A DNA stretch of 33,961 nucleotides, taken from the IMG/VR virus record IMGVR_UViG_3300037067_019759. One strand, given 5' to 3'. The position numbers were made by a program, and so were the translations under genes. Positions 2,951-27,232 of the stretch are shown here, piece by piece (position 1 is the first letter of the stretch; every line of letters begins with the position of its first letter). The notes beneath the pieces are model-generated. The model had not been told where the DNA came from and made no database searches. It saw only the letters and a program-made list of their open reading frames with translations. Origin of the DNA: a virus. Taxonomy: Duplodnaviria; Heunggongvirae; Uroviricota; Caudoviricetes.

Positions 2951-2967
2951 GGGGTTAATTAATTATT

Positions 2968-3043
2968 AACCTGCAAGACATAAAAACCATTTGTTGTAGT
3001 GGATTACCCTTGCAGGTTGCCACTCGGCATATGGTTTTTGTGT
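2968..3043 (+). promoter_or_regulatory. Structured leader (pseudoknot or alternative-fold switch)
   Basis: 2968-77 pairs with 3009-18 (10 bp perfect); 2978-90 pairs with 3031-43 (13 bp, one G-U); the two pairings are interleaved. Confidence 0.55.
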
Positions 3044-3053
3044 TAGTAAAAGT

Positions 3054-3716
3054 ATGGAAACAGTGAAAAAAGAGGATTTTAAAAAATGCAAAGTAAATAA
3101 TTGCAAAAATAATGCTCATTGGAAAAACCATGGGAGAAGAGGATACTGTCGAAGACATGATGCTCAAATTCAAAAAAATGGAAAAATTTTAACTCGTACC
3201 CGTTTTGACTCTAATGAAATTATAGATTGTGGGAGTTATTATGAGATATGTCTTTATTCGGGATGTGGAGAAAAAAAAGAAATTGAAAGAGCAAAAATAG
3301 ACAAAGAAGATTTGGAAAAAGTTAAAAATTATAAATGGCATTTGATGATAGTAGATACAGGGGGAAAATATGTTATTTCAGGAAAAGATAGATTATTATT
3401 ACATCATTTAATTATGGGAAAACCATCTAAAGGATTTGAAATTGATCATCATTTTGGCGATCCTTTAGATAACAGAAAACAAAATTTAAGATTTGCCACT
3501 AAAAGTCAAAATGGAATGAATAAAAAAAATGTAAAAGGGTATACTTGGGATAAATCAAGAAATAAATGGATGGTGTATATTGGAGTAAATGGCAAAAAGA
3601 TTAATTTAGGTCGTTTTAACGACGAACAACTCGCCACTAAAGTAGCCCAAGAAGCACGCCAAAAATACTTCGGCGAATTTGCCTATCAAGAGCCAGCAAT
3701 AATAACAAATAAATAA
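3054..3716 (+). CDS. Free-standing HNH homing endonuclease with C-terminal AP2 DNA-binding domain
   Basis: EIDHHFGDPLDNRKQNLRFATKSQN (HNH_3); KGYTWDKSRNKWMVYIGVNGKKINLGRF...ARQKYFGEFA (AP2); N-terminal Cys/His cluster. Confidence 0.9.
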   Translation: METVKKEDFKKCKVNNCKNNAHWKNHGRRGYCRRHDAQIQKNGKILTRTRFDSNEIIDCGSYYEICLYSGCGEKKEIERAKIDKEDLEKVKNYKWHLMIVDTGGKYVISGKDRLLLHHLIMGKPSKGFEIDHHFGDPLDNRKQNLRFATKSQNGMNKKNVKGYTWDKSRNKWMVYIGVNGKKINLGRFNDEQLATKVAQEARQKYFGEFAYQEPAIITNK

Positions 3717-14910: not shown

Positions 14911-15480
14911 ATGAAGGAATTAAAACCAATTATAATAACCGGCGATGGCTTGGGCCAAGGCGGGTTTTATCAAAAAAATGAATATGCGCAGAACATTTTA
15001 TTAAAAGCATTGTCCAGTGGTATCACTGACGTGCAAGAATTACGGCGCTTAGCGGGGTTAAGAACGGCAGTTGATGTTTATCGCACGCTGGACAAAATGG
15101 CAATTCGCAAGGACTATCATCGGGCATTAAGTGATGCCGGGTTAAGTTTGGATTACGTAGTAGGAAAAATAAAAAATATTATTGATAATGAAGATGGTAA
15201 AGACGATACCAAACTTAAAGCGTTGCAGACGCTGATGACTTCGCTTGGTTTAGATAAGTATCAGAAGGAAGAAGAAGGCGGTAAAAATTGGGAAGAAGCT
15301 ATTATCGGAGCTTTGGAAAAGACTGAACAAAAACAATTAGATGATCCTTCAAATTTAAATAAAGACAATTCGTTGGAAGTTGATGATTATGAAGTAGTGA
15401 TTCCTGAAGTTCCTCAAGAGGCGGTGGATCAAAGAAAAAAAGAAGAAGAATTGGGAAAGGAAATTTATGGAGATATCTAA
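14911..15480 (+). CDS. terS: Probable terminase small subunit
   Basis: Overlaps the terL start; SLDYVVGKIKNII..DDTKLKALQTLMTSLGL resembles the TerS oligomerisation helices. Confidence 0.65.
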   Translation: MKELKPIIITGDGLGQGGFYQKNEYAQNILLKALSSGITDVQELRRLAGLRTAVDVYRTLDKMAIRKDYHRALSDAGLSLDYVVGKIKNIIDNEDGKDDTKLKALQTLMTSLGLDKYQKEEEGGKNWEEAIIGALEKTEQKQLDDPSNLNKDNSLEVDDYEVVIPEVPQEAVDQRKKEEELGKEIYGDI

Positions 15481-18400
15481 AGAAGAAACTTTAAAAAGAT
15501 TGCGTGATCCGAAATTTTATTTAGAAAATTTTTGTCGTATTAAGGGAAAATTGCAAGGTAGTCTTATCCCGTTTGTTTTAAATGAAGCACAGAAAGATTT
15601 GTTTAATACGTTGAAGAAATATTCGCGTATTTTAATTAACAAGGGTCGGCAATTAGGAACTTCAACTGGTGCTGTAGGTTGGATTTATCATAATACAATA
15701 ACAAACCCAGGGACTACCAGCGCCTTGATTGGATATAATACGCAATTAACTGCTGAATTACTTGATAAAGTTAAAACATTATATCAATCTACGCCTGATG
15801 AATTAAAACCAACAATCCATTATAATTCCAGATGGGAAATAAGTTTTCCTAAAATTAATTCTAAAATTTTAGTGATTGCCGCTGGTGATAGCGTAGGGCG
15901 TGGTTTTACTTTAAATAATGTTCTCTGCGTTTCGGGAGAAATTGAAGTTTTTATTGAAAATGGATTTACTAAAAAAGTTAAAGACATAAAAGATGGTGAT
16001 TTTATTTTAAACGGAAGGGGCGGATTGGCAAAAGTAAAAATGGTTATAAAAAAGAAAAATGATAAAAATTTATTAAGAATAAAAATAGTTGGTAATAATG
16101 ATCTTGTAGTAACAGAAGATCACGAAATTTTAGTTAGAGGCAGTAAATTAAATGGATATAAGCATGAATGGAAAAAAGCTTCAGATTTAACTAATAAGGA
16201 TAGAATTGGATATCCTCATTTTCAATGTAGAAACAGAAATAAAACCATTAAAATACCTAATATAATAAATGAAGATTATTTAAGTAGAAGTAATTTAAGT
16301 AAAGTTAATAATGTAATTAATATAGATTATAACTTTGGGTTATTTATTGGTTGGTATTTAGCAGAAGGAAATATAAAAAAAAATGTAAAAAAAGATTTTA
16401 GCGGAGTACAATTTTCAATTCATAAAGATGAGGTCGATGAGGTGTTGGGAGTAATAGAAAAAAGTGTAAAAAAAAATGTTGGCAAGATATCGGTATATTA
16501 TAGCAAAAAAAGTAAGACAGCAGTTATTAATTTATATGATAAAAATTTTTCTAAATTTATTTATGATATATTCGGAGATGGATCATTAAATAAAATAATT
16601 AATGATTGTATTTGGTATTGGAATACTGATTTTGCATATGGTCTTCTTGCTGGATTGTTTAAGGGCAATGGATATTTAAAAAAAACTAATAGATCTCAAC
16701 TAATTAGTATTAATAAACAATTAATATATCAAGTAAAAAAACTTTTAATTTCCTTGAGAATAGGAATGCCTAATATCAATCATCATGATACTAATAGATA
16801 TGGAGTAAAAAATCAACATCGCTATGATTTAATATTAGGCGGTAAATCTAATTATAAGTTTAGAAAAAAATTAAATTTTGAATTACCAATTTACGATAAT
16901 GGCAGAGGAAAATGGTTGTTAGAAAATTTGCCTAATGTAAATCAGGGACATGGTACATCAAGAAAAGGGCGATACTTTTTTTGGTCAAAAATAAATAAAA
17001 TAGAAAAAAGTGATCATGAAGAATATGTATATGACATAGTAATGGATAAATCACCGCATAGTTTTTTAACGGTTTCAGGGGTAGTTCATAATTGCACTGA
17101 GCTTCCACAATGGGAAAATGCGGAAGAAAAACTAATTGCTTTGGAAGCTTCGGTACCGATTAGTGGTAAATTAATAATAGAATCAACTCCAATGTGGGTG
17201 GGAGATCTTTTCCACCGCTTGTGGGTTACCAAAGATAACGGTTATGTTAAAAAAGAATACGGCTGGTGGTGGGGGTATAGTTTTGAAGAGAAGGAAATTA
17301 TAAAAAAGAGAATGAACAACCCAATTAAGTTCGGACGCGAGTATGAACTTAAATTTCTTTCTACCGGTTTGGCGGTGTTTGATACGGATAAAATTCAAGG
17401 ACATTTTAAAAATATTTTAAAAGTAGGCGACAGCGTAAAGAATGAAGATGGCAGTGAAACGTTGGTGGAGAAATATGGCGATTGGGTGATTTATAAGAAA
17501 CCTAATCCTACGCATTTCTACTCGGTTGGTTGTTTACCTGACGGAGAAAAAGTTTTGACAAATAGTGGTTTAAAAAATATAGAAGATATTAATTTTAATG
17601 ATAAACTTATAGATGCTAATGGAAAAATTGTAAAAATAAAAAATATACAAAGAAGATATTATGAAGGAAAAATAATAGAAATAAAACCAAACTACACCTC
17701 TTTTTGTACAAAATTTACACCAGAACATCCCATTCTAGTATTGAAAGATAATAAATTATATAGAGAACAAAAAAAAATTAGTAGTAATTATGGAGAACGA
17801 TATTATAAAACAGATACTTTTTGGAAAATTGCTAAAGATTTAACTGAAAATGATATTTGTAAAATTCCTATTAGATTTAAAAAAGAATTATCAAAAAATA
17901 AAATATTAAAACGTTTTTCTAAGCAAAAAAATGTTAGAATTGATAGAAGATTAAATCCTAATATAATTTTAGAGGAAGATTTTTGGTTTTTTATTGGTTT
18001 ATGGTTAGCTGAAGGATGGACAACTCAAGATATAATTAGAAATGATAGAATAATTAATACCTATGGTGTGACTATTCATTTAAATGCTCTAACAGAAAAA
18101 TTTTTAGTTAATAAAATTTTAAAAGTTATTAAAAAGTATTTTAATAGAAATGTTAATTATAGGGTTAAACAAGAATGTAATGTAATTGATATTAAGTTTA
18201 ATTCAGAAGTGATTCATAAATTTATAAATGATAACTTTGGTCAAAAAGCTAAAAATAAAGATATAAAAGAATGGATTAAATATTTACCAGCTAATTTAAA
18301 GATGGCGTTGTTTAATGGATACAGAACAGGAGATGGATGTGAATCAATGCAAAAAAATGGATTATCTATAAATTGTGTTTCTATATCAGAAAAATTGTTA

Positions 18401-19285
18401 TATGATTTTCAAGAAATTCTTTTATCTATGGATATTATTTCTGCGGTTGGGGTATTAAGAAAAGAGGGGTATCATACAATTAATGACAGGAAATGTTATT
18501 GTCAAAAAACATTTCAATTAAATATTTCAGTTAGAGATTCTGAGAAGATATTAAATAAAAATAATAAATTTTTTAGAAAAAGACATAAAAGATATGGATG
18601 GATAAAGGATGGATTTTTATATGTGAAAATAGGAAGAATAAAGAAAGTTTATTATAATGGATTTGTTAATAATTTTGAAACTGAAACTCATAGCTATCAA
18701 TCTCCATTTTTAATTACACATAATTGCGACGTGGCCGAAGGATTAGAAGGTGGAGATTTTTCCTGCGCTGTAATTTGGGACAGAACTACTGGCGAGGAAG
18801 TAGCATTCTACCATCGTTATATTCCTCCTGATGTATTTGCTAAAGAATTAAACACGGTCGGCAGATTATATAATAACGCATTGATGGTGGTGGAAATTAA
18901 TAACCATGGTTTAACTGTCGTTTCAAATTTAAAACAATTATTATACCCTAATTTTTATTTCCGGCTGGAGAAGTACGAAACAATAGGGATGACTAGCAGT
19001 GACCGGATTGGTTGGAAAACAAATAAGATGACGCGTCCGGTATTGATTGATGAGTTTGACAAAGCATTCCGCGAGGATTTACTTTTAATCCACAGTAAGG
19101 AATTATTAGATGAAATGATTGTGTTTATTTATGATAAGAATGGAGATATGAACGCTACGCCCGGTTACAAAGATGATTCTATCTTCGCGGCGGCGATTGG
19201 TTGGCAAGGATTTAAAGTGACCTCTGCCGTCGCGCTTGAGCAGTTGGACTACAATTCTTATCTCCCGAAGTCATACGCGTACTAA
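15467..19285 (+). CDS. terL: Terminase large subunit with two inteins (about 485 aa after splicing)
   Basis: INKGRQLGTST (Walker A); GRGFTLNNVL/CTE (Walker B region); IIESTP; YSVG/CDVAEG..GGDFS and EINNHG, KDDSIFA (RNase H-like nuclease). Confidence 0.93.
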   Translation: MEISKEETLKRLRDPKFYLENFCRIKGKLQGSLIPFVLNEAQKDLFNTLKKYSRILINKGRQLGTSTGAVGWIYHNTITNPGTTSALIGYNTQLTAELLDKVKTLYQSTPDELKPTIHYNSRWEISFPKINSKILVIAAGDSVGRGFTLNNVLCVSGEIEVFIENGFTKKVKDIKDGDFILNGRGGLAKVKMVIKKKNDKNLLRIKIVGNNDLVVTEDHEILVRGSKLNGYKHEWKKASDLTNKDRIGYPHFQCRNRNKTIKIPNIINEDYLSRSNLSKVNNVINIDYNFGLFIGWYLAEGNIKKNVKKDFSGVQFSIHKDEVDEVLGVIEKSVKKNVGKISVYYSKKSKTAVINLYDKNFSKFIYDIFGDGSLNKIINDCIWYWNTDFAYGLLAGLFKGNGYLKKTNRSQLISINKQLIYQVKKLLISLRIGMPNINHHDTNRYGVKNQHRYDLILGGKSNYKFRKKLNFELPIYDNGRGKWLLENLPNVNQGHGTSRKGRYFFWSKINKIEKSDHEEYVYDIVMDKSPHSFLTVSGVVHNCTELPQWENAEEKLIALEASVPISGKLIIESTPMWVGDLFHRLWVTKDNGYVKKEYGWWWGYSFEEKEIIKKRMNNPIKFGREYELKFLSTGLAVFDTDKIQGHFKNILKVGDSVKNEDGSETLVEKYGDWVIYKKPNPTHFYSVGCLPDGEKVLTNSGLKNIEDINFNDKLIDANGKIVKIKNIQRRYYEGKIIEIKPNYTSFCTKFTPEHPILVLKDNKLYREQKKISSNYGERYYKTDTFWKIAKDLTENDICKIPIRFKKELSKNKILKRFSKQKNVRIDRRLNPNIILEEDFWFFIGLWLAEGWTTQDIIRNDRIINTYGVTIHLNALTEKFLVNKILKVIKKYFNRNVNYRVKQECNVIDIKFNSEVIHKFINDNFGQKAKNKDIKEWIKYLPANLKMALFNGYRTGDGCESMQKNGLSINCVSISEKLLYDFQEILLSMDIISAVGVLRKEGYHTINDRKCYCQKTFQLNISVRDSEKILNKNNKFFRKRHKRYGWIKDGFLYVKIGRIKKVYYNGFVNNFETETHSYQSPFLITHNCDVAEGLEGGDFSCAVIWDRTTGEEVAFYHRYIPPDVFAKELNTVGRLYNNALMVVEINNHGLTVVSNLKQLLYPNFYFRLEKYETIGMTSSDRIGWKTNKMTRPVLIDEFDKAFREDLLLIHSKELLDEMIVFIYDKNGDMNATPGYKDDSIFAAAIGWQGFKVTSAVALEQLDYNSYLPKSYAY
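15926..17092 (+). mobile_element. Intein 1 (389 aa) with LAGLIDADG endonuclease domain
   Basis: Begins CVSGEIEV, has block B TEDHEILV and GWYLAEG / AGLFKGNG, ends VVHN before +1 Cys. Confidence 0.92.
17531..18724 (+). mobile_element. Intein 2 (398 aa) with LAGLIDADG endonuclease domain
   Basis: Begins CLPDGEKV, has TPEHPILV and GLWLAEG / GYRTGDG, ends ITHN before +1 Cys. Confidence 0.92.
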
Positions 19286-24258: not shown

Positions 24259-25524
24259 ATGCCTTATCCATATACGACAGAACCGACTCATGTGCAAGGT
24301 ACAGTAGCGGCAGCTCCGCGTACTACGCATGAATCAGGTTCTTCACACGAGAATATTCAAAAATTGGATGTTGTAGACAAAATATTCATGCTTGAACCTC
24401 GTAAAACACCGTTTATTCAATTATTAACAAATGTTGGACGTTCTTATGACGGTACCTCTTGGCAGGGTTCAGCATTGCAAAAAGCACCAACGGTAAATAC
24501 TGAATTTAAATGTTTTGAGGATCAATATGGTGGTCGGTACGCGAAGGTAAATCTTGCGTACAATGCCGGTGACGATCCGGTAACCATTACCGTTTCCGGT
24601 GCTGGTTCAAGTTCAGCTTATATTTTTACTAAAGGCGATATTATAATGAATTATCGTACTGGTGAACGTATGAAAGTTGCTTCAGTCTCTGGTACCACCA
24701 CTATTACCGCTAATCGTTCAATCGGAACAACTCCGGGGACAGCTGGCGTAATTGGCGATGGTTTGTATATTATCGGTAATGCGAATGAGGAAAATGCGAC
24801 TGCGCGCAACGTTAACACTACATTAAAAACAGCGCAGACGAATTTGACCCAAACGTTTCGAACCAGTATATCAGTTTCTGGATCTCAAATGGCAACTGCT
24901 CAATATGGTGAAGCAGAACTTCCTTTTCAACGTCGGAAGAAAGGTATTGAGCATTTGCTTGATATCGAGCGAGCATTTATGTTTTCTGAAAAAAATGATG
25001 GTACTGGAGCTTCTAGTCTTCCTGAAAGAACTACTGGCGGTTTGTTAGAATTTATTGAAGGTGGCAACTCTTACGTTCAAGATCAAGGCGGCGTGTTGAC
25101 TGCTCCTGATTTTGACGTATTTTTGAGAGAAGGTTTCACCTACGGCGATGGCACTAAACTATTGCTTTGCGGCGGTCCGGTGTTATCAGCTATCAATGAA
25201 ATAGCCCGCGGTCAGATTGTAACTAAAACTGGTGATAAATCTTACGGATTGCAGATAACTGAATGGCAATCTCCGCATGGTGTTGTTAATATTGTACGTC
25301 ATCCGTTCTTAGTTCAAGATTTTGCCGGTTACGCATTTTTACTTGATTTAAATTCATTCAGATATCGTTATTTATCTGCTAATGGAGTAAATCGCGATAC
25401 TAAATTAAATCTTAATATTCAAGCTAACGGCACGGACGGTATTGTAGATGAATATTTGACTGAGTGCGGTTTGGAACGTAATCAAGCAGCTCATCACGCG
25501 TTACTAAAAGGTGTATTATCCTAG
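24259..25524 (+). CDS. Major capsid protein (SU10/DUF5309 type, HK97 fold)
   Basis: EPRKTPF; N.TQTFRTSISVSGS; QRRKKGIEHLLDIERAF; RTTGGLLEFI; DEYLTECGLE. Confidence 0.88.
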   Translation: MPYPYTTEPTHVQGTVAAAPRTTHESGSSHENIQKLDVVDKIFMLEPRKTPFIQLLTNVGRSYDGTSWQGSALQKAPTVNTEFKCFEDQYGGRYAKVNLAYNAGDDPVTITVSGAGSSSAYIFTKGDIIMNYRTGERMKVASVSGTTTITANRSIGTTPGTAGVIGDGLYIIGNANEENATARNVNTTLKTAQTNLTQTFRTSISVSGSQMATAQYGEAELPFQRRKKGIEHLLDIERAFMFSEKNDGTGASSLPERTTGGLLEFIEGGNSYVQDQGGVLTAPDFDVFLREGFTYGDGTKLLLCGGPVLSAINEIARGQIVTKTGDKSYGLQITEWQSPHGVVNIVRHPFLVQDFAGYAFLLDLNSFRYRYLSANGVNRDTKLNLNIQANGTDGIVDEYLTECGLERNQAAHHALLKGVLS

Positions 25525-25544
25525 TAATATAATAATACTGATAT

Positions 25545-25634
25545 GGATTCCAACGGGGGGATGGGAAGCGCAAATAAACATCCCCCCTTTGTAGGGGAAA
25601 CTCTGCAACCCGACAAAATCACGGGTAATTGATT
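25545..25634 (+). ncRNA. Structured leader motif, copy 1
   Basis: GGATTCC; 9-bp stem with GGA..GCAAA loop; GAAA hairpin; CCGACAA-AATCA-CGGGTAAT-TGATT. Confidence 0.55.
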
Positions 25635-25657
25635 CTTAATTAACCTAACTAAAAAAT

Positions 25658-26362
25658 ATGGGATACGATTTTTCAAAAACGAGAGAGTTATTAAGCGGTT
25701 CTAAAGCGGCAATGATCGTTTATAATGAACCAGTGGCTCTTCGTTTAAAATATAAAGGAACAGGCACGGTTACTTCCGTTACTGTAACAACTGGTACTAA
25801 TATAGTATTGGTTACTTCCGATGGGGGGACTGATACTTATGCTTTTGCTACATTTACTACGATGGGAAATTTAGAGGATGCTATCAATTCTGATGGTATT
25901 TTTGAAGCAAAAGTGTTGGATGCATTACGTCAAGATTTAACTTCAGGAAGTCCGCTGGTTGATGGTGCTAAAACTATCACTACTGATGGTTATTATGATT
26001 TATGCGTTGATACTAATGTTACTTTTTCTTTAACTTATCGTTGTGCTTATGACAGAAATGTTAAAAAAGAAGCACCAGTGTACAATCATCGCGTTAAATT
26101 AAATGAGTTTATTTATTATGCCACACTTGGTAATGCTTCTGCGAATGACGTTCAAGTATGGGAATACGACAGAGAACATAATACTGAAACTCAAGTGTAT
26201 CAAGCTACTTCAGTAAGTGCTACTGTCACTACTACTAGATTTGCTAATGGCAAAGGTAATATTTGCAGTGGAAATGGAAATGATTTGATTGTTAGATTAA
26301 TTGACAATACTTCTTTGGCCGATTCTGGAGCTTTCTTGCAAGTAAACTATACTAGAGAATAA
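25658..26362 (+). CDS. Virion protein, paralog A (capsid decoration/auxiliary candidate)
   Basis: Beta-rich, Thr/Val-rich; follows the MCP; clearly similar to 26480-27202. Confidence 0.75.
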   Translation: MGYDFSKTRELLSGSKAAMIVYNEPVALRLKYKGTGTVTSVTVTTGTNIVLVTSDGGTDTYAFATFTTMGNLEDAINSDGIFEAKVLDALRQDLTSGSPLVDGAKTITTDGYYDLCVDTNVTFSLTYRCAYDRNVKKEAPVYNHRVKLNEFIYYATLGNASANDVQVWEYDREHNTETQVYQATSVSATVTTTRFANGKGNICSGNGNDLIVRLIDNTSLADSGAFLQVNYTRE

Positions 26363-26370
26363 ATTAGTAC

Positions 26371-26455
26371 GGATATCCTTCGAAATTGTGGGATGTAAAA
26401 TCACAGTTTTCTATAAGATCAACTTATAGTCCGAAAAAGCCACGGGTAAATGGCT
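26371..26455 (+). ncRNA. Structured leader motif, copy 2
   Basis: GGATATCC; 8-bp stem with GGATGTAAAAT loop; 7-bp hairpin; CCGAAAA-AGCCA-CGGGTAAA-TGGCT. Confidence 0.55.
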
Positions 26456-26479
26456 GGTTTAATTAATTAAGTAAAAATT

Positions 26480-27202
26480 ATGGCTAGTTTAAAATCAATT
26501 TTGGAAAAAGCCGCATTAGCAAAAAATGTTGTCGGCACTGTTGTCGCTGATACTCCAGTAGCTATCAGAATAAAGTATATTGGTTCTGGTTCTGTTACTT
26601 CCGTTACTGTCGATACTGATCAAGATATTACGTTAGTATCGGTAGAGAGCGGGACAACGGTTACGGAAGAATATTTATTAGCTACTTATACCACAATGGG
26701 AGCGTTAGCTGATAGAATAAATAACAGTCAATATTGGGATGCCGAAGTGGTAGACGCGTTAAGAGCAGATTCAACTGCGAGTAGTCCGTTTGTTGATAAT
26801 GCCTCCCTAACTATTACGGCAGATGGGTATTACGATGCGTTAGTAGACACAAATGTTACTCTCACCCTTACTTACCGATGCGCATATGATCGTGGAGTTA
26901 ATGAATCGGAAGTAAAACCAAAAGGAGCTCATCGAGTGCATTTGCAAGATATCGTGTATTACGCGGATGTAACTGGAGGAGCGGCTAATGAGTTTAGGAT
27001 TTATGAGTATAATCCGACTACTTTAGCGGAAACTCAAGTATATCAGGCAACATTAGTTGATGGCGTGGAAACAAGAGTAAATTTTGCCAATGGAGAGGGA
27101 GAAATAACCTCTGATTGGAATAATGATTTAATCGTGAGAATTGTTGAAAACGCGGCGTTAGCTGATACTTGCTACATGTACGTTAGTTATATAGCAGAAT
27201 AA
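26480..27202 (+). CDS. Virion protein, paralog B
   Basis: Shares PVA.R.KY, VTSVTV, DALR.D, DGYYD..VDTNVT..LTYRCAYDR, ETQVYQAT and NDLIVR with paralog A. Confidence 0.75.
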   Translation: MASLKSILEKAALAKNVVGTVVADTPVAIRIKYIGSGSVTSVTVDTDQDITLVSVESGTTVTEEYLLATYTTMGALADRINNSQYWDAEVVDALRADSTASSPFVDNASLTITADGYYDALVDTNVTLTLTYRCAYDRGVNESEVKPKGAHRVHLQDIVYYADVTGGAANEFRIYEYNPTTLAETQVYQATLVDGVETRVNFANGEGEITSDWNNDLIVRIVENAALADTCYMYVSYIAE

Positions 27203-27204
27203 TT

Positions 27205-27232
27205 ATTAGGGGAGCTTAAAAATTCCCCTAAT
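27205..27232 (+). terminator. Terminator-like or stabilising hairpin
   Basis: ATTAGGGGA-10 nt-TCCCCTAAT followed by AT-rich sequence with a weak U tract. Confidence 0.45.

Follow-up and report, generated by a model that had tools for sequence, protein, structure and literature searches.

Tandem-pseudoknot RNA leaders precede a family of capsid-adjacent genes in phages that appear to infect Patescibacteria

We analyzed the region behind the major capsid gene in a 33,961-nt stretch of DNA from an uncultured tailed phage (Caudoviricetes; IMG/VR record IMGVR_UViG_3300037067_019759), referred to in its entirety as the window. The capsid gene is followed there by two paralogous genes, pA and pB, each preceded by an intergenic gap of ~120 nt, and each gap holds one copy of an RNA motif built from two tandem pseudoknots. 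An earlier note, made from the letters alone, had proposed a duplicated pseudoknot-capable RNA at this place. The genes, the two motif copies and their helices (stems P1 to P3, pseudoknot helices PK1 and PK2) are arranged as follows:

24259–25524, + strand: major capsid protein gene (phrog_1328 major head protein, E 1.5e-44; PDB 9in6, VP1 capsid, E 5e-22)
25546–25638, + strand: leader RNA copy 1, whole motif, before pA (covariance model R1, 57.3 bits, E 2e-13)
25548–25551/25564–25567, + strand: copy 1 PK1, UUCC with GGAA, with a 3-nt linker between the PK1 5' strand and P1 (read from the sequence)
25555–25563/25579–25587, + strand: copy 1 P1, 9 bp, whose 15-nt loop includes the PK1 3' strand and an A-rich tract
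25589–25596/25601–25608, + strand: copy 1 P2, variable hairpin of 8 bp with a GAAA loop (sequence and fold prediction)
25609–25612/25622–25625, + strand: copy 1 PK2, CCCG with CGGG of the P3 loop, and a 4-nt linker (sequence)
25617–25621/25630–25634, + strand: copy 1 P3, 5 bp (sequence)
25635–25657, + strand: copy 1 spacer, unstructured, A/U-rich and without a Shine-Dalgarno (SD) site; the ribosome landing region
25658–26362, + strand: pA gene, first paralog, 234 aa (AlphaFold model, all-beta, predicted local distance difference test (pLDDT) 90)
26373–26459, + strand: leader RNA copy 2, whole motif, before pB (covariance model R1, 85.4 bits, E 3e-21)
26374–26378/26391–26395, + strand: copy 2 PK1 (sequence and fold prediction)
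26382–26390/26402–26410, + strand: copy 2 P1 (sequence and fold prediction)
26411–26417/26423–26429, + strand: copy 2 P2, 7 bp (sequence and fold prediction)
26430–26433/26443–26446, + strand: copy 2 PK2, UCCG with CGGG of the P3 loop, and a linker (sequence)
26438–26442/26451–26455, + strand: copy 2 P3 (sequence)
26480–27202, + strand: pB gene, second paralog of the pA family, 240 aa

The earlier note had described one shared architecture for the two gaps, and its elements are present where it placed them. A 22-nt core common to both copies occurs exactly twice in the 34-kb window, against 0.00 expected. Its distances are exact, with 23 nt from the end of P3 to the ATG at 25658 in copy 1 and 24 nt to the ATG at 26480 in copy 2, and the downstream genes are paralogous as it said (48% identity, E 1e-69). 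Its opening GGAT(A)TCC element survived in part: the TCC half is the 5' strand of PK1, while the palindrome is not conserved as a hairpin. The nested fold of each copy scores z -3.4 (copy 1) and z -1.2 (copy 2) against shuffles, and the PK1 columns covary both in 45 and in 96 homologs.

To place the two copies in a family, we drew capsid-protein relatives at 50–94% identity from IMG/VR, JGI/ENA metagenomes and GTDB genomes. The locus search used a capsid-protein alignment, since a pA alignment is too diverse; a locus search with a single pA protein found no relatives. A covariance model of homologous intergenic regions, which the earlier note had named as a check, was built from a MAFFT alignment (A5) of 45 instances aligned without a structure reference. 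This model, R1, matches ~105 instances in ~90 related phage contigs, with E-values down to 1e-24; all lie on the gene (sense) strand, and every site directly follows either the capsid gene or a first copy of pA. The region 5' of pA homologs in related loci shows the same architecture with other helix sequences, and the motif is kept in front of proteins that are only 35–50% identical.

The covariation in these alignments is extensive. The proposed structure pairs 93.1% of the cells of the 45-sequence MAFFT alignment (shuffles, 65.6%), and the covariation score is 0.659 against 0.171, a value reached by 0 of 500 shuffles; when the partners are slid by 1–3 columns, only 0.08–0.17 is left. In the 96-sequence model alignment 95.6% of cells pair (64% in shuffles), and 29 of the 30 pairs are altered on both sides, with all five helices represented. 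Both-side changes occur across homologs at all 9 pairs of P1, all pairs of P2 covary, and P3 covaries at 5 of its 5 pairs. PK2 is mostly invariant, with G-C to C-G swaps in five lineages, 25 U-G cases, and C-G to U-A changes at two further positions. A structure-free, all-against-all mutual-information scan ranks exactly the pairs of P1, PK1, P2 and P3 at the top and reveals no competing or mutually exclusive covarying helix. The compensatory changes thus extend to the pairings proposed in the earlier note, namely stems that keep pairing despite sequence change, an H-type pseudoknot between a CCCG-type strand and the loop CGGG, and pairing of the upstream TCC with the loop GGA. Because G-U outnumbers A-C in the helix columns by 185:22, the folded molecule is the sense-strand transcript, and neither duplex DNA nor the opposite strand. 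That both gaps hold copies of a real structured RNA is practically certain.

The consensus of this RNA has 87 positions, in the order PK1 5' strand (PK1a), 3-nt linker, P1, PK1 3' strand (PK1b), A-rich loop, P1 return strand, P2, PK2a, 4-nt linker, and P3 with PK2b in its loop. Module 1 is an H-type pseudoknot in which a 5' strand xUCC pairs with the first 4–5 bases of the P1 loop, GGAx; P1 has 9 bp, of which the last pairs are U-A and G-C, and the 3-nt linker crosses P1 while the pseudoknot helix is spanned by an A-rich loop of 6 nt, xUAAAU. P2 directly abuts P1 with no spacer, and its length varies between 10 and 102 nt among family members. Module 2 repeats the topology, with CCCG pairing with the CGGG that opens the 8-nt loop of P3, a 5-bp hairpin; the 4-nt linker of this module starts with a conserved A, and the P3 loop ends with UxAU. 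The lengths of the single-stranded elements are distributed as follows:

PK1a–P1 linker of 3 nt: 89 of 96 instances
A-rich loop of 6 nt: 71 of 96 instances
PK2a–P3 linker of 4 nt: 68 of 96 instances
Second loop, 3' of PK2b, of 4 nt: 93 of 96 instances
P1/P2 junction of 0 nt: 94 of 96 instances

Conserved unpaired bases are few (~8) and include U7, the AAA, A62, U75 and A77. Because the junctions have zero length, PK1-P1 and PK2-P3 could stack into a single four-helix rod of ~23 bp with P2 sticking out, and in such a rod the conserved unpaired bases would meet near the middle. Two variant instances (L057:3601-3665 and L117:1609-1689; L numbers denote related loci) keep P2 and P3/PK2, with a different 5' hairpin replacing P1/PK1, which suggests that the two modules are separable. 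An extra small hairpin, possibly a P4, lies between P3 and the AUG in some relatives (L070:3802-3839, L049:3598-3660, L038:3866-3896, L024:3858-3883, L019:3851-3885) and is not conserved across the family.

Other pairings were considered and rejected. The GGG of the P1 loop could meet a downstream CCC in 3 invariant pairs, which are beyond the reach of covariation, and both segments have covarying partners of their own. The conserved loops are not consistently complementary to either the spacer or the start codon. A likeness of the upstream strand to the 3' tail of 16S rRNA, and of a GGGA to an SD site, was discounted because it lies ~80 nt from the AUG, with no start codon after it, in a phage without SD use. 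A CsrA-type GGA-in-loop site is unlikely, as this GGA is paired in PK1 with covariation.

The motif also stands apart from catalogued RNA families. We searched Rfam 15 (4227 models) with the window at gathering scores, with 25450–26550 at E<=10, and with ten other motif loci at E<=1. There were no gathering-level matches in the window, and 25450–26550 gave sub-threshold matches only, five of them in the pA coding region and one, to rdlD, on the minus strand at 25574–25640 overlapping copy 1 (18.7 bits against a cutoff of 50). The ten other loci matched only group I introns elsewhere in the loci; ribozymes, pseudoknot riboswitches, the alpha-operon leader RF00140 and capsid-adjacent orphan motifs gave no Rfam match. 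The statement in the earlier note that the RNA cannot be assigned to a known family therefore holds, and a literature search found no description of the motif. Freshwater-2 (RF02980) and Mu-gpT-DE are conserved orphan RNAs located just after a phage capsid gene or before the next virion gene; the motif shares their capsid-adjacent position but has no model match to them and differs in its tandem H-type pseudoknot and in a host range that appears to be that of Patescibacteria phages. Structured mRNA leaders and pseudoknot operators are a known kind of element; what is new is this family with its tandem-pseudoknot build.

Across the family the motif is linked to pA and not to the capsid gene. 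Every match with downstream sequence is followed next by the start of a pA-family gene, at 10–75 nt from the AUG (mostly 15–35 nt) over an A/U-rich, unstructured spacer, and the gene encodes 230–250 aa with a protein start that is mostly MASLDS. In five phage records of 74–102 kb (four rated complete, ~100 kb) the motif occurs solely before pA. Overall it was found in front of this gene family only, in keeping with the cis-acting RNA inferred in the earlier note. Relatives in which the capsid gene leads directly to pC, the gene next after the pA block, have no motif, just a simple hairpin, and distant capsid relatives (39–41% identity), including those within Patescibacteria contigs, have neither pA nor motif. 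L099, a pA-bearing locus missed by the model, has a divergent copy that is recognisable by eye. A capsid-independent pattern scan of IMG/VR returned 18 stretches, of which 16 are true instances, all in the same context; the other two, a single sequence present on two contigs, match by chance and fail the model. A tree of 77 pA proteins has same-genome paralogs in no fewer than five separate clades, an apparent record of repeated, independent duplication of pA (at least five events) in which each copy kept a model-detectable leader.

In several lineages, HNH/endonuclease VII-type genes stand between the capsid gene and the motif, and the motif still abuts pA each time. Since these genes separate the capsid gene from the motif and never the motif from pA, the motif travels with pA. 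They are free-standing endonuclease genes (phrog_1035, E 1e-21 to 1e-27; L013:3849-4520, L022:3860-4534, the same as L002:5360-6034, L041:3823-4506, L103:3822-4505, L120:3838-4674), and in L022 and L120 the endonuclease open reading frame (ORF) has its stop inside the first motif bases; the motif DNA or the 3' end of the capsid gene may be a homing target of these enzymes. A group I intron (RF00028) was detected in the head-gene region of L066 at 61.6 bits, above the 50-bit cutoff, with weaker matches below it at L044:2363-2515 (44.3 bits) and at a second L066 site (29.6 bits); the L066 intron matches lie at 1403–1631 and 2166–2456. Such introns probably explain the split capsid-gene matches in some loci.

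No Pfam, PHROG or PDB sequence relative of pA was found, and its 90 metagenomic homologs are all unnamed. Family members have ~235 aa and are acidic (median pI 4.7, net charge -8), and pA has no recognisable nucleic-acid-binding domain. The AlphaFold model is an all-beta sandwich whose closest folds are PBSX XepA (Z 8.1) and viral jelly-roll, turret and cement proteins (Z 6–7), generic likenesses which, with the position of the gene, make a capsid-associated role plausible. Judged by sequence, the window capsid protein resembles that of Vibrio phage VP1 (9in6); the SU10 type assigned to it in the earlier note is a weaker likeness (SU10 head protein 7z45, E 2e-4).

An SD-like word precedes 5 of the 32 window-phage genes, and all start regions are A/U-rich; the stretch between motif and AUG is thus a start region like any other in this phage, as A/U-rich, SD-less starts occur genome-wide. 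Genome matches of the capsid relatives fall in bins labelled Saccharibacteria, Shapirobacteria, Nomurabacteria and Parcubacteria, and the phages of the motif family appear to infect Patescibacteria (candidate phyla radiation, CPR). The window had no blastn match among 50,697 phage records, a tRNA/tmRNA scan found none, and a terminator scan gave weak terminator-like calls that do not recur in homologs. In one relative, codon 6 of the pA homolog is an in-frame TGA (L071:2785-2802, L072:3930-3947), and strong homology continues beyond it; TGA is probably decoded there as an amino acid (code 4 or 25), suggesting recoding in the phage or its host.

We read each gap as the 5' leader of the pA-family mRNA that follows it, acting post-transcriptionally and most likely as a protein-bound operator, and assign this reading a probability of about 0.5. 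Like cis-regulatory leaders in general, the motif is on the sense strand, lies upstream of one orthologous family and is co-inherited with it, and an action in cis on pA expression is very probable. A protein-bound translational operator specifically is a tentative proposal, to which we give somewhat less than even odds. Under this proposal the fold, which ends mostly 15–35 nt before the AUG, would sit at the upstream edge of the SD-less landing region, and a protein docking on it would hinder 30S loading next door. The docking protein might be a host factor or an unassembled component of head assembly, for instance capsid protein or free pA, and pA output would thereby be matched to capsid assembly. 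We favor an operator because the element is needed once per gene copy and a bound factor would abut the ribosome, because there is no expression platform and no alternative fold, and because precedents exist in the pseudoknot operators of T4 gene 32 and the S4-bound alpha operon and in the assembly-coupled control of the P22 scaffold.

One of these precedents is the T4/T2 gene 32 leader, in which a 5' H-type pseudoknot is followed by an unstructured A/U-rich operator and which serves autogenous translational repression. The motif shares the 5'-side H-type pseudoknot, the A/U-rich unpaired tract up to the AUG and the gene specificity. It differs in having two tandem pseudoknots and a variable hairpin, with no sequence relationship; its A/U-rich tract is a genome-wide start feature and not a special operator, and pA is a virion-module protein with an acidic, beta-sandwich character rather than a cooperative binder of single-stranded DNA. 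The E. coli alpha-operon (rpsM) leader, bound by S4 (RF00140), and the rpsO/S15 leader are pseudoknotted and autoregulatory. The alpha-operon leader, a protein-bound operator, is likewise a multi-pseudoknot structure directly upstream of a start site, but the pseudoknots of both systems include the ribosome-binding site and start codon, whereas here the start is outside the fold. In phage P22, the scaffolding gene is autoregulated post-transcriptionally by unassembled scaffold protein, a precedent for head-protein synthesis being tuned at this level to capsid assembly; unlike here, no defined RNA structure is known there, the gene family, phage group and (probably) host differ, and RNA binding by pA is hypothetical.

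Several points weigh against the operator reading. The operator-binding protein is hypothetical, and the all-beta pA has no recognisable nucleic-acid-binding domain; since it is acidic and without an RNA-binding signature, direct autorepression by pA is not favored a priori. No conserved helix takes in the start codon or the landing region, and the fold alone is no obvious mask of initiation. The conserved unpaired bases could be explained by RNA-intrinsic tertiary contacts without a protein, and a constrained core with one variable stem is also typical of riboswitches and ribozymes. Finally, both translational control and any binding partner are proposed for phages that are uncultured.

A different proposition makes the tandem pseudoknot a new, autonomously active RNA (a riboswitch, a self-cleaving ribozyme, or the first exonuclease-resistant RNA of a bacterial virus) that sets the dose of a capsid-associated protein in phages of ultrasmall Patescibacteria; we regard it as rather unlikely. 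Ranked by likelihood, the rivals to an operator are a stabiliser or insulator, a riboswitch, a new ribozyme and a transcription-level element.

The first of these, unlikely in our estimate, treats the double pseudoknot as a constitutive stabiliser or processing boundary with no regulator, which would form a protected 5' end after an endonucleolytic cut of the late transcript and block 5'-3' decay (RNase J type) as viral exonuclease-resistant RNAs (xrRNAs) do. Upstream sequence might in addition be kept from pairing with the A/U-rich start region. Flavivirus and plant-virus xrRNAs are compact, pseudoknot-locked folds with a buried 5' strand, and the buried 5' strand predicted here could mechanically block a 5'-3' enzyme. 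In line with this, the first conserved element is the 5' strand locked in a pseudoknot, the loop lengths are fixed, no alternative fold covaries, and the conserved bases are mostly G-C pseudoknot pairs and the A-rich loop, which RNA-intrinsic stability can explain. The upstream content varies (capsid gene, terminator-like hairpins, endonuclease genes) while the motif always abuts pA, and each duplicated gene has kept its own copy. However, simple hairpins are usually enough for this purpose, and a need at pA only, among ~100 genes, is left unexplained; the setting is bacterial, there is no closing helix and no three-way junction or ring evidence as in flavivirus xrRNAs, and neither a processing site nor the RNase set of the host is in evidence.

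The evidence leans away from a classical riboswitch, because there is no alternative fold and the landing region lies outside the fold. A small-molecule or ion sensor with a ligand pocket where both pseudoknots and P2 meet, changing pA expression, is accordingly improbable: no expression platform, terminator or mutually exclusive covarying helix is seen, the fold leaves the start region free, at a distance that varies, only ~8 unpaired bases are conserved, and a single associated gene, of the virion module, is an unusual target that gives no ligand clue. Its appeal lies in the constrained core with one variable-length stem, in a predicted gathering of the conserved unpaired bases around the central junction, and in a module size like that of preQ1-I, SAM-II and guanidine-III aptamers. 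From the preQ1-I/II, SAM-II/V, fluoride and guanidine-III riboswitches the motif differs in that the start lies 10–75 nt outside the fold; having no Rfam match, it would have to be a new class.

Small self-cleaving ribozymes are common in phage genomes and often doubly pseudoknotted, and group I introns and homing endonucleases are abundant in the same neighborhood as this compact, constrained core with its variable stem. That the motif is a new class of self-cleaving ribozyme, cutting between the cistrons of pA and of the capsid protein (or endonuclease), is nevertheless a decidedly doubtful alternative, and the evidence speaks against membership in a known ribozyme class. The Rfam ribozyme models, among them hammerhead, twister, twister-sister, pistol, hatchet and HDV-like, gave no match even at E<=10; the helix order (a-b-a'-b', hairpin, c-d-c'-d') is unlike the topologies of these classes; and conserved junction nucleotides are few, with no invariant candidate cleavage dinucleotide.

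A very improbable alternative is control at the level of transcription, by a put-like terminator-resistance RNA or by an attenuator that sets the ratio of capsid to downstream transcript. The site, after a highly expressed capsid gene, is one where phages often attenuate, P1 of copy 1 is G+C-rich and followed by UUUGU, and terminator-like hairpins occur after pA/pB and, in pA-less relatives, in place of the motif. Yet across homologs there are no U-tracts after P1 or P3, one antitermination site per operon would be enough where a copy is kept per duplicated gene, and the motif stays with pA and not with the capsid 3' end when endonuclease genes intervene.

Conservation at the DNA level (promoter, protein site or homing target) or functionless inheritance from a tandem duplication is extremely improbable: the window copies did arise by duplication of a leader-plus-gene unit, and endonuclease genes insert at the upstream edge of the motif, whose DNA may be a homing target too, but the compensatory changes in five helices over ~100 sequences, a structure that by its G-U excess reads on one strand only, matches all on the sense strand, promoter-like sites at or below chance in a promoter consensus scan, and retention across such diverged proteins all stand against it.

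For the leader itself, these results add an uncatalogued RNA family from apparent CPR phages, whose hosts are almost unstudied with regard to gene regulation and translation initiation. The strict linkage to one gene raises a concrete question, namely how the dosage of a capsid-adjacent protein is set without SD sites, and the fold, being compact and of fixed geometry, lends itself well to structure determination and to use as a modular RNA part. If it holds true more widely, RNA-level control of head-protein stoichiometry may be a general, overlooked phage strategy.

Further features were observed around the motif and elsewhere in the window. A stable terminator-like hairpin lies 3' of pA/pB at 27206–27231, long hairpins follow pA/pB in relatives (L001:6150-6231, L007:6133-6229, L008:6138-6236), and 3' of that hairpin a conserved box with TTATGAATAA lies ~13 nt upstream of the pC start; the block of capsid gene, pA and (where present) pB may thus be expressed as a unit with boundaries of its own. 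Just upstream of the portal gene, a 1272-aa ORF (15467–19285) contains an intein (Intein_splicing, E 5e-18; LAGLIDADG_3, E 7e-14), which is one more selfish element of the head module. A further leader with pseudoknot potential lies at 2964–3040, where the loop segment AAAAACCAT of a 10-bp hairpin (~2970–2979/3011–3020) is able to pair with ATGGTTTTT directly 5' of the ATG at 3054.

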